Source: Escherichia phage vB_EcoP_SYGE1. From it: a DNA stretch of 39,713 nt. Both the position numbers and the translations under genes were made by a program. Below the pieces are notes generated by a model. That model ran no database searches. It saw only the letters and a list, made by a program, of their open reading frames with translations, and had not been told where the DNA came from. Shown here in pieces: positions 817 through 29,870 of the stretch. How positions within the stretch are numbered: the stretch's first letter is position 1; each line of letters opens with the position of its first letter. The stretch lies in sequence record MW883060. The stretch is one strand, 5' to 3'.

Positions 817-2577
817 TCACCACTCAATGAAAGACGTACCGTAACCCTCATCGTCCTCAGAGTACACCTCAACTCCTCCTACAGACATCTCAATGATGTG
901 CGTGGCAGACACTGTAGGGCGCATCATGTGCTCCTCAAGGAAGTCAGCAATCACTTCACCTTCGACCTTAATGGAATCCAACTGCATGGACTCACGGAGA
1001 TACTCAACGCCTAACGCAAGGGCATCCAATCGGTCATCATGAGCCAGAGCGCCTTTATCACGGGTGATACGGGTCATCTGGTAGAACAGTGAATACTTAA
1101 CGTCATGCTTACCGTCTACATCACGAGCGGACTGGTAGTCGGCCCTAATGACCTCATCACGAATGATAAGGCGGTGAGTCTGCATGACTGGCTCAAGGGT
1201 GTCACAAATACGTACCTCCTTCATTCCACGAGCACGAATCTCTTCCATAGCGCAGTTGTGGTGTTTAAGAAGGATAGGACTGAACACCTTACCAAACATA
1301 CCATCACCGAAGTTACTCTCATAGACAACCGTATGGACTCCCCATTGCTTCGCTTTCTTAGCGAGCAACTCAAGGGTCTTATCGGAGTAACCATCACGGA
1401 AACCTCCAGCTTCCATAAGGTAGATGTAACCGTTCAGGGTGTACAGTACAGCGTAACCTGTTTCGTCCTTACCGCGACCACTAGGGTCAATGACCAGAAT
1501 CTTCTGTTGGTACTGACCTGAGTTGTTGGAACAATCATGATAGGTATGCAGGTCATCACCTTTAAGACCAACGTTAGGAAGGTCCTCAATGATGTTCTGA
1601 CGGTTCGGAAGCCACTGGTAATGCATTGGGGCCTTCTCTAAGTCTAAGGCCGCTACGATAGCGTCACGGAGCCTCAGAGGGTACTTCTCGGCATCACTCA
1701 GGTTCGGGTTAAGCATGAACTGTAGTGTGAAGCCAGCCTTACCGTATTCCAACTCACGCTCACGCAGGTCATCACGGTCAAAGCGCACAGGGTCTGTAGG
1801 AGTCCCAGCGAGTGCCTCAGGGTTCTCATCGTACTCAGCGCGTAACATAGGAGCAAGACGCTGTGCGTAATAGAGGTTCTCTTCATGCGTCCTTGGGTAC
1901 AGAGCAGGCCAGATGATAGTGGTGTACCCACGGTTATCCTCAAGTTCCTTATAGAGAGTCATCTCAGTTTGAGGTGTACCAAGGTAGATAACGCGAGAGG
2001 AAGGCAGCGGTTTAAGTAACGCAGCGAACTCCTGAACGAGAGTCCACAGCTTCTCACGGGCACCCATAGTCGCACTGTTAGACGGAATCTCAACGTCATC
2101 CGCAATGATAATGTCAGCACGGCTACCAGTTAACTGACCAGTGATACCCACTGATTTAACACTAGGAGAGTGGTCAGGTTTAGCTGGGCCAACGTCAAAG
2201 CTGATTACAGAATCACGCTGTCCGGGTCTTGGCTTCAACTCGCTGAGAAACGGTAGAAGGTCAATGATGTTCTTAATGAAGATGGAGTTAGCGTCTGCAC
2301 GCTCCTTAGAGGCTGATACGATAAGTATCTTCAACTGAGGGTCTCTCCATAAGGACCACACAACGAACGCACATGTGATGAACGACTTACCGATACCACG
2401 GAAAGCCTGTAGGATAAACTTCTTGTTTTCTCCATTCGCAAGCACCTTAGCCATGTCAATCTGACACTTAGTGGGCACCGGAAGATTTAACGCCTTCCAT
2501 AAGACGAACAGGAACGCCACGAAGTCTCCTTTCAGTTGCGCCACTACGAGCGCATTACGATTGGCTTGAGTAGACAT
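817..2577 (-). CDS. Terminase large subunit (DNA maturase B), gp19
   Basis: 586 aa with ATG start; near identical to recalled T7 gp19 ([18 protein letters not shown]..., GIGKSF ATPase motif). Confidence 0.95.
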
Positions 2578-2586
2578 GTTGCCTCC

Positions 2587-3030
2587 TTACTTGATTTCCT
2601 GCTTATGTTGCAGTTCACGAATAGTATCCTGTAACGCACGAATCCATGCGTCACCCCTCTGGGTCACTGCGAGAATACGCTTAGCATCTCGGTCGTCAAG
2701 TTCGGCTCGACCATCAGGCTCGAATCCACACTGACCATCGGAGGCTCCGGTAGTTTTGACTCTGACGCGCAACCGCTTATTGTCGCTACGCAAATCAGAA
2801 ATAATCCTATCAGTGCTCCCTTCCAGCGCGGCAAGGTCTTCTTGATACTTAGCCGATATTTCATTGATTGCTCTTTGAGTGCTCGCCGTAGCCTCAACTC
2901 TCTTAACGTACTCATTGTGTACCTCCTGTTTCCATTTAGCGTCCATTGAGTCTGACCCTAGGTGCCATCCTAATCCGAATAGCATCCCAGCGAGAACCCA
3001 AGGGATTAGCTTACGTAAAAATTCCAGCAT
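2587..3030 (-). CDS. i-spanin Rz (gp18.5)
   Basis: 147 aa with ATG start and an N-terminal transmembrane segment; contains the embedded Rz1 ORF in another frame. Confidence 0.85.
   Translation of the reverse strand: MLEFLRKLIPWVLAGMLFGLGWHLGSDSMDAKWKQEVHNEYVKRVEATASTQRAINEISAKYQEDLAALEGSTDRIISDLRSDNKRLRVRVKTTGASDGQCGFEPDGRAELDDRDAKRILAVTQRGDAWIRALQDTIRELQHKQEIK
2664..2915 (-). CDS. o-spanin Rz1 (gp18.7), embedded out of frame inside Rz
   Basis: 83 aa with ATG start; lipobox-like ATISGCAS followed by a proline-rich segment; lies wholly within the Rz ORF in a different frame. Confidence 0.8.
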   Translation of the reverse strand: MSTLRELRLRRALKEQSMKYRLSIKKTLPRWKGALIGLFLICVATISGCASESKLPEPPMVSVDSSLMVEPNLTTEMLSVFSQ

Positions 3031-22710: not shown

Positions 22711-23012
22711 CAGAACACCTCCCGTACAGTTGCAGGAGAGAGTCGAATCAGTTTACGCTCAGACTCGCTCATGTCATTGTAGCTATCCTTAACGAATGAG
22801 CGAAGTTCATGCTTAATCAGGAACGTAGCGAGGCCCTCAGGACCATTCGTCAACGCTTGGACAAGCAACTCTTTCTTAAAGTCATCAACCTGTTCACCAG
22901 CGGCTACTGCCTTTGCAACTCGCATGACGTAGTCTTGTAGGTTTCGTTCACCTTCACTAGTAATTACAGCGGTAACATCAAAGGACGCTTTAAATTTCTT
23001 GGTGATAGCCAT
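22710..23012 (-). CDS. gp5.5 (H-NS-binding protein in T7)
   Basis: 100 aa from ATG at 23010..23012 preceded by ATAGGAGAAATTATT; the 147-aa track ORF is an upstream extension that overlaps gene 5 exon 2 in another frame. Confidence 0.75.
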   Translation of the reverse strand: MAITKKFKASFDVTAVITSEGERNLQDYVMRVAKAVAAGEQVDDFKKELLVQALTNGPEGLATFLIKHELRSFVKDSYNDMSESERKLIRLSPATVREVF

Positions 23013-23031
23013 AATAATTTCTCCTATAGAA

Positions 23032-25746
23032 TTAGTGACATACGGCCCAATTCGGACCAATCTTACCTTCGGTATCCAGAAGACACCGGAAGTTCCAGTG
23101 GTCTCCAACCCAGCGCATTGCTTCTTGTGCGGTCTCAATGACCACCTGAGCAATCTCTTCGGTACGGCAACCTACTTGAATCTCATCCTTTCTGTATTCT
23201 CCTATTACTAGGAGTGTCGGACTATATCATCAGCCTTTGAGTTGACTGTCTGGCGCTTCGGGTAACGAGGGAATCTCACCCTCGGCCCTACTCCTTTCGG
23301 ATAGTCTCTACGCCTTCCACTCTCTAATCCACTTACAAGCGGCAGAGAACGTTACACCAAACTTCTCACCTAAGTGTGTTCCTGTACATCCAGTCTCCAA
23401 CCAGTATTCCTTCGCGGACTCTTTACGGTCAGCGTAGCGTTCACTGTTTGTCTTGACTGTATGCTCAGAACCTTCTAGTAACTGGAGGTGCTCTACGTTA
23501 CAGCACGCCCTGTTCCTACACTTGTGGTCTACTTCATACCCTTCTGGTATATCTCCGTAGTGTTCCTTCCATACTGTCCTGTGATACATTTCTAGGACAC
23601 CGTTAGTCTTCTTTTGGAAATAACCATCAGCATTAAGTTTGTGTGACGTAGGGATGATACAACCACTCTCTGTGGCCGCAAGTATTAACTTCTTGCCTCT
23701 CATATATCCTCCCTATGGCTTGGCTCGGTATTGCCCAGAAGGGTTTCACCGAGTTCACCAGATTTAATGTGCACAATGAGATAGTTTATGCACCCATGCC
23801 ATGTACGCAAAGTCCCCATCCCATCCATGCTTCAAGCCTTTCTCTACAAGCATCTCTTCGGTCTTGATAATCCACAGTTTGCAGATAAGAGCACCAGCAG
23901 ATTGCAGTAGGGTATTCAAGGCAGCATGAGGACTACGAACGTGTACCTTACGACCATCCAGACCTTTAATCCAGCGGCGTTTCCACTTGACTTGTTGCTC
24001 ACCAGCTACCCATTGAGAGGACTCGACAAGTGTCTGTTGGATAGACTCGCGGAGTGCTGCAATCGCGGGGGTGTTCTCAAGGAATTTCTTCTTGAGTTCC
24101 TTACCGCGCTCTTTACCAGCACCAACAATCTGCCCAATCTTCTCATCACCAGCACCATAAAGGAACCCATAGATGAACGTCTTTGCGTTATCACGGGTAG
24201 GCAATTCAGCAGCTAGCTGGTTCTTAGTGTGGATGTCGCCATGAAGAATCTCTCTAGCGTACTCGCCGTTATCAAAGCGAGCCATGAAATGAGCCAAGCA
24301 GCGTAGCTCCAGACCGGATGCGTCTATACCTGCCTGAACCCAAGGCTTACCCGTAATACCGTCTAGGTGATGTTCAGCGCCAAAAGCAGCGCGGCACTTA
24401 TCACCATAAGGAGAACGGACACCGGGTACTTGTGCGAGGTTAGGGAAAGCGTGAGTAGCGCGCCCAGTAACAGCGCCGTTGGGATTAACAGAACCATGAA
24501 TCTTACCGTCCTCAGCAACGTAACGAAGCCACGCCTTGTCTCCCTCAGCAGACTGTCCGATTCGCTTCTGAATCATCAGGTACTCTTTAATGAGGTCGAT
24601 AGCAGCTTGCTTCTCAGGGTCATCTACACGCACTCCTTCGAGTACCTCATCGTCCACCACAGGAGCGCCATTATCGGTGTACTTCGTGGGGACCCAGCCA
24701 GCCTCTTGAAGTTTCTTCTGGATGTGGTCACGAGACGATGGGTTAAACACTACGTGCTCAACTGGGGTGTAAGGAGCACCAGCAACGTACTCTCGGGTAT
24801 CCAGTTCGCAAGGCTCAAGGCCTTCTCGCTGTGCCTTGTTCTTAGGCTTCTTAAAGATACCACCAACTTTAGGTGTCTTAATGCGAGGGTATTTAGGCAG
24901 TGGCTTACCTGTCCGTGGATGGCAGAACATTTCGGTACCACCTTTCGGCTGATACCATGAGCCGAACGTTTCGGTCAGCTTACGGAGCAACTCAGAGCGT
25001 CTCGCAGCTAACTCTACGTACAACTCTTCGATTGCTTTCGTGTCAAATGGGAATCCATTGCGTTCTTGCTTAGCGAGCAGCCATGCAGCACGATGCTCAA
25101 TGTCAACGGCCTCAAGGGATTCTGACCAGAACGTAGTGTATCCTACGTCCGTAAAGTCAATCTCAGGAGGGAAGTAATGTTTGTCAGAGAGTAGCTTCTC
25201 AAGGAGAGTTTTAGTGACCACAACGTCCTGAACGTTATAGGCCATCATCTCTTCGTTGAAGTTCCACCACTCCATTCCGTCAACGTATTCTTCACCTTGC
25301 TCTTCAAGCATACGCTTAAAGTCATCCTTGTATTCACCCTTCATCTCGCCTAAGCGATAGCCCCACGCCTCCAGAGCGTGAGACCCAAAGCGGTTCCCCG
25401 GCAACTTACCGGAACGCAGGAGACCCATATCGGTGTCCTTTAGGTTAGAGTGAATCAAACGTGACAGCACAAGGGTGTCAATACAGTTCTCGCGAGGAAG
25501 GTGGAACTCTCGGTTCAATTGTAGCTTTGCCAGTTTGGTCAATGCAGGAACGTCATACTTGTGACCGTTGTGGAACACAATAAGACCGCCTCGTGCAACC
25601 TCGGCTTCCAGCGCATCCAGATACGCACCGAAGTCACTCGGACGGTAGCTTACGTACTCAGCGGTGGAGTAGTCGTAGATAACCCCGCAGTGGAACTTAG
25701 TGACGCTCTCTAAGAGGGCGTTAGCTTCGATGTCAGAAACGATCAT
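23032..25746 (-). CDS. DNA polymerase gp5, split gene: exon 1 25746..23788, exon 2 23187..23032, spliced product 704 aa
   Basis: The track ORF (660 aa) follows T7 gp5 up to ...FAYMAWVH and then adds 7 unrelated residues before a stop. The missing C-terminus ([51 protein letters not shown]-stop) is encoded 600 nt downstream. 653 + 51 = 704 aa, the T7 gp5 length. Confidence 0.85.
23188..23787 (-). mobile_element. Group I self-splicing intron (600 nt) in DNA polymerase gene 5, carrying an HNH homing endonuclease ORF
   Basis: Exon 1 ends in U and the intron ends in G. Intron positions 14-19 (GUGCAC) can pair with the exon 1 end GUGCAU including the U-G wobble (P1); positions 8-13 (CUCAUU) can pair with the exon 2 start GAUGAG (P10). 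The 3' part has P7-like AGACUA...GAUAUAGUCCGAC and a terminal hairpin CUCCUAGUAAUAGGAG. Confidence 0.8.
23308..23703 (-). CDS. Intron-encoded HNH homing endonuclease (131 aa)
   Basis: ATG preceded by AGGGAGGATAT; HNH motif [20 protein letters not shown]; its TAG stop abuts the P7-like core element. Confidence 0.8.
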   Translation of the reverse strand: MRGKKLILAATESGCIIPTSHKLNADGYFQKKTNGVLEMYHRTVWKEHYGDIPEGYEVDHKCRNRACCNVEHLQLLEGSEHTVKTNSERYADRKESAKEYWLETGCTGTHLGEKFGVTFSAACKWIREWKA

Positions 25747-29021: not shown

Positions 29022-29470
29022 TATTTCTTTCCTCCTTTCCTTTTTAATCTATCAAAGGGGACCTTCTTCTTGGGTTCCTTTATCCACTCAGCAGGTATCA
29101 GTTTATCAGCGAACTTAATGCCATGCTTTTCGCAGAACTCTCCATAAGACGTTGGAGAACCTTTGTATAACTTAGTACGTGAGCTTGAGAAGACAATACG
29201 GATGTCTAACTCGGGGTGCTGCTCCCTAATTAATAAGTGCTTCTTTCTATCATCGCTTTCCCACAGACCCTTCGTCTCAACGAATATACCGTTGGGAAGT
29301 AAGAAGTCTGGGGTGTAAGTGTGACTGCTCGCCGGAATTACATAAGGCACTTTCCACTCTTCATACTCGAATTTAATACCTTTTGATTCCAACTGCTTTG
29401 AAACCTTGTCCTCTAGGCCAGAGCGAAACGCTCCAACCTTTCGGATTCCTTTAGCGCCGTAACCTGCCAT
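29021..29470 (-). CDS. Endonuclease I (Holliday junction resolvase) gp3
   Basis: 149 aa from ATG at 29468..29470 preceded by GGGAGGCGAC; MAGYGAKGIRKVGAFRSGLEDK... Confidence 0.9.
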   Translation of the reverse strand: MAGYGAKGIRKVGAFRSGLEDKVSKQLESKGIKFEYEEWKVPYVIPASSHTYTPDFLLPNGIFVETKGLWESDDRKKHLLIREQHPELDIRIVFSSSRTKLYKGSPTSYGEFCEKHGIKFADKLIPAEWIKEPKKKVPFDRLKRKGGKK

Positions 29471-29870
29471 GTCGCCTCCCTTTGCGTATATCACAAATAG
29501 TCTGTTGGGAGACACCATAGGTGCGAGCTAAGGATACATTGGACTCGCTGGACTCCATGATTGCCATTACGTCTTCGTCTGAAAGTTTATACCCCTTGTG
29601 TGAGCGACCCTTATTTACCATGTCAGCGGAGTTCTCTTTTGGAGTTCCTATGGATAGGTGTTCAGGGTTACAACATAATGGATTATCACAGGAGTGCAGG
29701 ACGGTAGAACCTTTAGGAGCATTAGACATTATGCGGTGGCAGTATACAACCTTTCCGGTATTACTGCACCACACCTGCCCGTACCCTTTACTGTTCGTAG
29801 CACCCTGCCACTCCCAACACCCAGAGGAAGTCACCTTGATTCGCTCAAGGATTTTCTCCCGCAGTTCCAC
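29451..29870 (-). CDS. gp2.8, HNH-like nuclease-fold protein with a C-terminal HTH-like segment
   Basis: 139 aa with GTG start; HSCDNPLCCNPEHL is an HNH-type motif; the C-terminus VSLARTYGVSQQTICDIRKGR is HTH-like. Confidence 0.7.
   Translation of the reverse strand: MELREKILERIKVTSSGCWEWQGATNSKGYGQVWCSNTGKVVYCHRIMSNAPKGSTVLHSCDNPLCCNPEHLSIGTPKENSADMVNKGRSHKGYKLSDEDVMAIMESSESNVSLARTYGVSQQTICDIRKGRRHGRLRR

Follow-up and report, generated by a model that had tools for sequence, protein, structure and literature searches.

The DNA polymerase gene (gene 5) of Escherichia phage vB_EcoP_SYGE1 is interrupted, on the minus strand of sequence record MW883060 (39,713 nucleotides, the whole stretch analyzed and hereafter called the window), by an insert that carries an open reading frame (ORF) of 131 residues, which the record labels only 'hypothetical protein'. 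An initial annotation, made from the letters alone, had read this ORF as the HNH endonuclease of a mobile intron that would cleave intronless polymerase alleles in mixed infections. In what follows, we ask what the ORF encodes, how it is accommodated in the insert, and what becomes of the interrupted polymerase. We will argue that it is very probably the homing endonuclease gene (HEG) of a mobile group I intron of the IA type. The element as such is already known, which the initial annotation did not recognize. It was described by Bonocora & Shub in 2004 (J Bacteriol 186:8153) and 2009 (Curr Biol 19:223), and the literature of 2004-2009 covers its mechanism, its family and its biological role. 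The case of SYGE1 adds little to this beyond a correct annotation.

The insert lies in motif C of the T7-type polymerase, where it separates the codon for His653 of gene 5 from that for Asp654. Exon 1 (23788..25746, on the minus strand like all features below) comprises 653 codons and ends in ...AWVH, and exon 2 (23032..23187) runs to ...NWAVCH and the stop codon. Removal of the intron yields a polymerase of 704 amino acids with no stops, and the spliced 120-nt junction aligns gap-free with the intronless alleles of YpsP-G (96.7%) and T3 (84%). The exon junction suggested in the initial annotation, ...TGGGTGCAT/GATGAG... (the slash marks the insertion point), is confirmed by this alignment with intronless alleles, and the contiguous target is kept in the intronless genes of T7, YpsP-G and T3. 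The SYGE1 gene 5 should accordingly be annotated as a spliced join.

The intron itself measures 600 nt (23188..23787), from AAACUAU... to ...CAGAAAG, with the terminal G at 23188. By its predicted secondary structure it is a group I intron of the IA type, with a P3/P7 pseudoknot, P7.1/P7.2 and a complete ribozyme that is supported by covariation. The internal guide (23769..23780) is made up of a P10 strand and a P1 strand. The former, CUCAUU (23775-23780), pairs with GAUGAG of exon 2, while the latter, GUGCAC (23769-23774), pairs with the last 6 nt of exon 1, GUGCAU (23788-23793), which form the 5' strand of P1 and place a U·G pair at the 5' splice site. Since the guide pairs with both exon ends, excision would rejoin the exons into the full-length polymerase of 704 amino acids. 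The guide was found to follow its exons in the relatives, position 6 of P10 covarying (C·G/U·A) with the wobble base of the Glu codon and position 1 of P1 covarying (G·C/A·U) in the Kuravirus copy.

The ribozyme core is divided into two halves. The 5' half (23717..23762) contains the 5' strand of P3 (UCUGGUG, 23756-23762), P4/P5 (23724-23753) and the 5' strand of P6 (GCC, 23717-23719). The 3' half (23199..23307) contains the 5' strand of P7 ((A)GACUA, 23302-23307), P7.1 (23292-23301), P7.2 (23260-23288), the 3' strand of P3 (CGCCAGA, 23249-23255), P8 (23231-23248), the 3' strand of P7 (UAGUC, 23220-23224) and P9 (23199-23214), with J8/7 reading AUGAUA. P2 is absent from the SYGE1 copy and present as a hairpin in the relatives L021 and L006. 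Over 14 relatives, the proposed core pairs (n=47) are 97.2% paired, compared to 34-44% when the 3' partners are slid, and 21 of the pairs show compensatory changes; none of 500 shuffles matched the observed values. P3, P4, P5, P7.2, P8 and P9 all covary, while P7 and P7.1 are uninformative in this respect because they are invariant. The long-range pairing of P6, GCC with GGC, is weak, having 3 bp and 86% paired cells, and its candidate 3' strand GGC (23312-23314) lies within the last codons of the ORF. At the gathering threshold, the Rfam model Intron_gpI (RF00028) gave no match in the intron. With permissive filters the full-length model is matched at 37.1 bits (E=9.5e-8), which is below the GA of 50, and we attribute the low score to the 396-nt ORF in P6 and to the missing P2.

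The ORF (23308..23703, 131 amino acids from ATG to TAG) fills the loop of P6. It lies inside the intron and has a Shine-Dalgarno sequence of its own, both as originally noted: GGGAGG (23708-23713) stands 4 nt before the ATG, the upstream sequence being AUAGGGAGGAUAU-AUG, and its GGAGG is kept in all ORF-bearing relatives. Sequestration of this ribosome binding site (RBS) in RNA structure was considered, but the local minimum free energy fold leaves the Shine-Dalgarno sequence unpaired. The intron was also searched for a sigma-70 promoter and an intrinsic terminator that could serve the ORF, and none was found above shuffled expectation. At the other end, AGACUA comes straight after the TAG (23308-23310), and the ORF stops one nucleotide short of the P7 strand. 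The P7-like element that the initial annotation had pointed to at this place is the true 5' strand of P7. Its location of the ORF in a peripheral loop likewise stands, the loop being that of P6, but the ORF does not precede the entire core. On its 5' side are P3, P4, P5 and the 5' strand of P6, and on its 3' side P7, P7.1, P7.2, the 3' strand of P3, P8, the 3' strand of P7 and P9, which places the ORF in the P6 loop between the two core halves.

It is worth pointing out that the AGACUA hexamer alone is not significant, AGACTA being present in 22 copies on the two strands of the window versus ca 19 expected by chance. The extended AGACUAUCC is unique in the window, as is its pairing partner GAUAUAGUCCGA, and the AGACUA after the stop codon is kept in register in all relatives, including those that have no ORF. 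A second copy of the hexamer is found inside the ORF (23604-23609). The Rfam alignment assigns J6/7-P7 to this internal copy, and we have rejected that assignment, the copy not being conserved in the K1F-type relatives (AGGACUAAC).

By homology, the ORF product is a conserved nuclease of the HNH/His-Me-finger kind and an orthologue of I-TslI. The HNH motif described in the initial annotation is present, and a profile search against HNH families, proposed there as a check, places the protein well above the cutoff of Pfam HNH_3 (PF13392), with 61.3 bits versus 24.8 (E=6.7e-17). It also matches PHROG 6254 'HNH endonuclease' (E=5e-46). Searches of PDB sequences and of NCBIfam gave no match. The protein consists of an N-terminal beta region, the HNH (His-Me finger) motif at residues ca 40-82 and a C-terminal tail that resembles a helix-turn-helix. 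Roughly 200 homologues are present in the phage database. In a set of 44 homologues there is no or hardly any variation at the catalytic His and Asn and at the Cys residues (H60, N69, H72, C62 and C67), and the SYGE1 ORF keeps all residues that are invariant in the family. An AF2 model (pLDDT 87) has I-HmuI (1u3e) as its best PDB match in Foldseek, spanning the whole model with a probability of 0.94 but a modest E-value of 8.8e-3 and a TM score of 0.36; I-PpoI and Smad MH1 rank next. The dN/dS of the endonuclease is 0.07-0.2, even at saturated synonymous divergence. Judged by such ratios, the family is under purifying selection, and most of its copies are intact.

The distribution of the intron is that of a mobile element in several respects. 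The intron of BUCT788 is 95-100% identical to that of SYGE1 while the flanking exons are only 68-70% identical, which indicates lateral transfer. Genomes with and without the intron occur within Teseptimavirus, within Kuravirus and among the ECBP5-like phages, and the insertion site in these lineages is always HD/E. In three relatives the ribozyme is intact and the ORF is damaged, by a 211-nt deletion (L146), an in-frame deletion (L148) or a premature TGA (L006), and HEG-deleted introns persist in complete phage genomes. The initial annotation had regarded an ORF disrupted in close relatives, with the intron persisting, as evidence against its own reading. L146, L148 and L006 do fit that description; they are not a valid refutation, because the life cycle of homing endonucleases predicts such copies. 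The comparative data are rather a clean illustration of the homing cycle, with intact, selected HEGs next to natural HEG deletions in which the ribozyme is kept, and they illustrate lateral transfer into diverged polymerase genes as well.

The same comparative data include relatives of the ribozyme that have no ORF or are differently loaded. When IMG/VR was scanned with the 14-nt J8/7-P7' motif, at least 120 group I introns came up, most of them unrelated, and the scan was useful only after filtering with nhmmer profiles.

The mobile-intron layout with an HNH endonuclease put forward at the outset is upheld. Drawing on the I-TslI literature and on the distribution of the family, we can outline how the cycle would proceed. 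In a mixed infection, the enzyme would nick or cut the intronless gene 5 allele of a relative, close to the insertion site. The recipient would then acquire the intron, together with the ORF and neighboring exon bases, through recombinational repair from the intron-bearing genome. Alleles that bear the intron would be immune to the enzyme because their target is split. A broader scenario, which we consider rather unlikely, is that the SYGE1 intron is one branch of a single ribozyme-plus-HNH cassette, that this cassette has moved among podophage lineages that are unrelated (Studiervirinae, Kuravirus and the ECBP5-like Klebsiella and Edwardsiella phages), always at HD/E of motif C and with the guide retuned to the wobble bases, and that the 14% divergence from I-TslI reflects a shifted target preference, e.g. 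for the T7 sequence GTACAT/GATGAA. If this shift were real, SYGE1 would be an active competitor of T7 in mixed infections.

A minority chance has to be given to the endonuclease being mainly a weapon between phages. It would cut the polymerase gene of an intronless co-infecting relative to the benefit of its own genome and linked markers (marker exclusion), and the spread of the intron would be a by-product; homing is compatible with this. In favor are the position of the target, in a motif of the polymerase active site that is essential, the strong purifying selection on the enzyme family in many lineages, and the free-standing homologues that adjoin an intronless gene 5 in phages of the T3 kind. 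For the polymerase introns of SPO1 and SP82, intron endonucleases have reportedly been established as a cause of marker exclusion (Goodrich-Blair & Shub 1996, a reference in PMC3428280). The sequence, on the other hand, offers nothing that separates a weapon from plain selfish homing, and the HEG-deleted introns in complete phage genomes indicate that the host phage does not need the nuclease.

It is highly improbable that the SYGE1 ORF is an intact-looking but dead relic, which has lost its activity or its target and whose intron is now inherited only vertically. The decayed copies in L146, L148 and L006 and the 18 residues that differ from the characterized I-TslI could be taken in this direction, but the ORF is of full length with every invariant family residue in place, the low dN/dS holds even where synonymous divergence is saturated, and the near-identical intron amid ca 70%-identical exons points to a recent transfer of the SYGE1 allele type. 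An insertion that is not spliced at all is hardly conceivable, even though the two parts of the polymerase are entered as separate CDSs in several database records. Gene 5 would in that case yield two polypeptides and enclose a free-standing nuclease gene, or the insert would be an intein. The latter is ruled out by the in-frame stops straight after the junction, at the start of the insert. The split gene was rejected in view of the complete group I ribozyme with its compensatory changes, U·G splice site, terminal G and guide to both exons, and also because the catalytic HDE motif itself is interrupted and exon 2, upon inspection, has neither a start codon nor a Shine-Dalgarno sequence of its own.

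With the ORF taken as the homing endonuclease gene of a mobile group I intron, it can be placed among the known systems. The protein is 86% identical (95% positives) to I-TslI of phage PhiI (AAV53690.1) over 131/131 residues without gaps, and the two belong to the same 90% cluster. They differ at 18 of the 131 residues, and identical target specificity is therefore not guaranteed. A passage in PMC8136825, which cites Bonocora & Shub 2009, describes I-TslI as a nicking homing endonuclease of the T7-like phage PhiI that nicks sites with a 9-bp core. The introns of PhiI and W31 (AY769989, AY769990) interrupt the T7-type DNA polymerase gene at a position equivalent to site 881 of E. coli Pol I, and their ORF is located in P6a and has its own RBS (PMC3428280). 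They resemble the SYGE1 intron in host gene, in the position of the ORF in P6/P6a and in the separate RBS. We take the SYGE1 site at His653/Asp654 of motif C to be the same position as site 881. GTP-dependent self-splicing has reportedly been described for the PhiI and W31 introns by Bonocora & Shub in 2004.

Across the intron, ORF and junctions, 13a, JeanTinguely (Bas64) and HZP2 are 97-98.5% identical to SYGE1. The records of 13a, JeanTinguely and K1F give gene 5 as a join of two pieces and name an HNH or homing endonuclease inside it, unlike the SYGE1 record with its hypothetical protein; the K1F-type copy is 80% identical to that of SYGE1 in nucleotides and 77% in protein. The free-standing HNH endonuclease of the T3 gene 5.3 type, which is 47% identical to the SYGE1 protein over residues 6-94, is not intronic and does not have the conserved C-terminal ...CKWIREWK tail. 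In T3, SH2 and several IMG/VR phages, its gene comes directly after a gene 5 that has no intron, ca 160 nt downstream of the intron insertion site, and no such gene was found after gene 5 in the SYGE1 window. This enzyme is presumably the F-TslI of Bonocora & Shub 2009. I-HmuI, I-HmuII, I-BasI and I-PfoP3I, finally, are nicking endonucleases of the HNH kind from introns in the polymerase genes of SPO1, SP82, Bastille and Pf-WMP3, with ca 20% sequence identity to the SYGE1 protein. The general logic is the same as in SYGE1, a family A polymerase gene being interrupted by an IA-type intron that carries its HNH ORF in a peripheral loop, but the insertion site is 674 instead of 881 in E. coli Pol I numbering (PMC3428280).

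The window holds the whole genome of a T7-like phage (Teseptimavirus), given as the reverse strand, and T7, 13a and IME390 are 92-94% identical to it over most of its length. Read without splicing, its gene 5 ORF (23764..25746, minus strand; 660 aa) follows T7 gene 5 through ...AWVH and then ends in KLSHCAH*, and the rest of the polymerase (...NWAVCH*) is found 3' of the intron at 23032..23187 (minus strand). Excision of the group I intron (23188..23787, minus strand; 600 nt, last base G at 23188) gives a stop-free polymerase of 704 aa, and 120 nt across the spliced junction align without gaps to intronless YpsP-G (96.7%) and to T3 (84%). The insertion point is His653/Asp654, within the catalytic HDE of motif C. 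Downstream of gene 5 (22990..23031, minus strand), gene 5.5 comes almost at once, and neither the T7 gene 5.3, which encodes a non-HNH protein, nor the HNH gene 5.3 of T3 type was found after gene 5 in the window.

The initial annotation had described an intron-encoded HNH ORF with its own Shine-Dalgarno sequence, and this observation is confirmed. The ORF runs from ATG to TAG at 23308..23703 (minus strand; 131 aa) and is preceded by AUAGGGAGGAUAU-AUG, with the Shine-Dalgarno at 23708-23713 (minus strand). Its product is identical to QUD16309.1, labelled 'hypothetical protein SYGE1_24' (Escherichia phage vB_EcoP_SYGE1). The proposed HMM search returned Pfam HNH_3 (E=6.7e-17, far over the curated cutoff) and PHROG 6254, 'HNH endonuclease' (5e-46). 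H60, C62, N69 and H72 do not vary across 44 homologues, near-invariant residues include D59 and C67, and the C-terminal tail ...FS.AC.WIREWK is conserved too. With eleven 131-codon relatives dN/dS is 0.07-0.20, including those comparisons in which synonymous sites are saturated. A second, free-standing HNH ORF of 139 aa (29451..29870, minus strand) is flanked by the SSB gene (2.5) and endonuclease I (gene 3), which places it where T7 has gene 2.8; it shares 29% identity with the intron ORF.

We now turn to the ribozyme. At the gathering threshold the Rfam group I model has no match in the window; under that score (50), it matches 23198..23797 with 37.1 bits (E=9.5e-8). A hand-drawn structure of 47 pairs (P3, P4, P5, a long-range P6, P7, P7.1, P7.2, P8 and P9) was tested on an alignment of 14 ORF-stripped 'mini-introns', with relatives taken from GenBank phages and IMG/VR. 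In this alignment 97.2% of the cells are paired, vs 34-44% after displacement of the 3' partners by 1-3 columns; compensatory changes occur in 21 of the 47 pairs, and none of 500 shuffles matched the observed pairing or covariation. P7 and P7.1 are invariant and thus uninformative either way, and the long-range P6 (GCC/GGC) pairs weakly. In P1 (GUGCAU/GUGCAC), which has a U·G at the splice site, position 1 covaries with the exon, being A·U in the Kuravirus copy (exon end AUGCAU). P10 is GAUGAG/CUCAUU, its guide strand lying directly 5' of the P1 guide, and its position 6 covaries, C·G with exon 2 start GAUGAG and U·A with GAUGAA. P2 is missing from the window's intron and present as a hairpin in the Klebsiella-phage relatives.

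The AGACUA that had been noted straight after the TAG is indeed there (23302-23307). The bare hexamer occurs 22 times in the window, once inside the ORF, which is the chance frequency, and the extended AGACUAUCC and its pairing partner GAUAUAGUCCGA are each present in a single copy. The Rfam alignment takes the ORF-internal AGACUA as J6/7-P7, a choice that was rejected, that copy not being conserved in K1F-type relatives. The post-stop copy is the true J6/7-P7 element and the ORF an insertion in the P6 loop, since in the ORF-less IMG/VR relatives L101 (10194-10396) and L058 (3659-3838) the identical ...GYAGAGACUAUCC comes after a short P6 hairpin. The final codons of the ORF, AAG GCG UAG, hold the candidate P6 3' strand, and the next base starts P7 5'. 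The earlier placement in a peripheral loop is hence correct, while 'upstream of the catalytic core' captures only half of the layout, as P3 5', P4, P5 and P6 5' precede the ORF. In the IMG/VR contig L060 (3331-3965) a related ribozyme in another host gene bears in its P6 loop an HNH ORF of another, classical kind; together with L101 and L058, this suggests that one ribozyme lineage has been loaded independently by different endonuclease genes. In two further relatives, L099 (~2150-2200) and L082, CAG replaces TAG and the ORF extends across P7 to stop within P7.1 (GGAGUAGG).

Direct evidence that the intron has been transferred laterally comes from BUCT788, where it is 95-100% identical to the window's while the flanking polymerase exons are just 68-70% identical. 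The ribozyme halves are more conserved (93-100% identity) than the ORF (76-98%). Teseptimavirus genomes with and without the intron stand side by side; most of the cognate intron is present in 11 of 36 Kuravirus records, with intronless relatives too, and a cognate intron is likewise present in some ECBP5-like phages and absent in others. The insertion site is constant across these groups (HD|E). Members of the intron/HNH family were seen there in the family A polymerase of Kuravirus PAS59 (2411-3014; Kuraviruses have ~76-79 kb) and in Klebsiella phage RCIP0053 (2390-3034), one of the ECBP5-like Klebsiella and Edwardsiella phages; in both groups the polymerase is often annotated as two separate CDSs or hypothetical proteins. 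Intronless T7 and YpsP-G have GTACAT|GATGAA vs GTGCAT|GATGA(G/A) in intron-bearing alleles (GTGCAT|GATGAG in the window, 23788-23793 and 23182-23187), so the Val wobble base by the junction matches the P1 guide of the intron; across the intron-bearing copies, the Glu wobble base and the P10 guide covary. These matches fit either co-conversion or selection that favours splicing.

Relatives in which the ORF is disrupted while the intron is retained, which the initial annotation had named as evidence against a homing function, do exist. A 211-nt deletion takes out the HNH motif in L146 (a 39.9-kb scaffold; 1416-1799), an in-frame deletion leaves 75 aa in L148 (1424-1848), and L006 (2989-3400) has a premature TGA at codon 9, the ribozyme being intact in all three. 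Such decay is expected as the degeneration phase of the homing cycle and is no refutation of function where the copy is intact. The interpretation as a mobile intron is supported, with minor corrections. In Citrobacter phage NS1, whose record begins inside gene 5, the intron copy (873-1479) has no exon 2 after its 3' end, a mutated P7 3' strand (UACUC) and an insertion in the P6 region, which points to either a decaying copy or an artefact of assembly or permutation.

It is important to note that the element, intron and endonuclease, is already known. In the GenBank entries for 13a, JeanTinguely and K1F, gene 5 is already entered as a join that encloses a homing/HNH endonuclease. A passage of PMC3428280, citing Bonocora & Shub 2004, describes polymerase-gene introns of group I in the T7-like phages PhiI and W31, inserted at site 881 in E. 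coli Pol I numbering and with the endonuclease ORF in P6a, and one in PMC8136825, citing Bonocora & Shub 2009, describes I-TslI as an enzyme that nicks a site with a core of 9 bp. I-TslI of PhiI (AAV53690.1) and the intron ORF align without gaps at 86% identity and 95% positives, and share a 90% cluster. Mobility of the PhiI intron reportedly requires I-TslI, and gp5.3 of T3 is said to cut at the same position; T3-like phages have a free-standing homologue (47% identity) directly behind an intronless gene 5. The AF2 model of the ORF product (pLDDT 87) has as its top PDB match, over the whole length, I-HmuI (prob 0.94, E=8.8e-3), the nicking HNH enzyme from the polymerase intron of SPO1, followed by other His-Me-finger folds, I-PpoI and Smad MH1.
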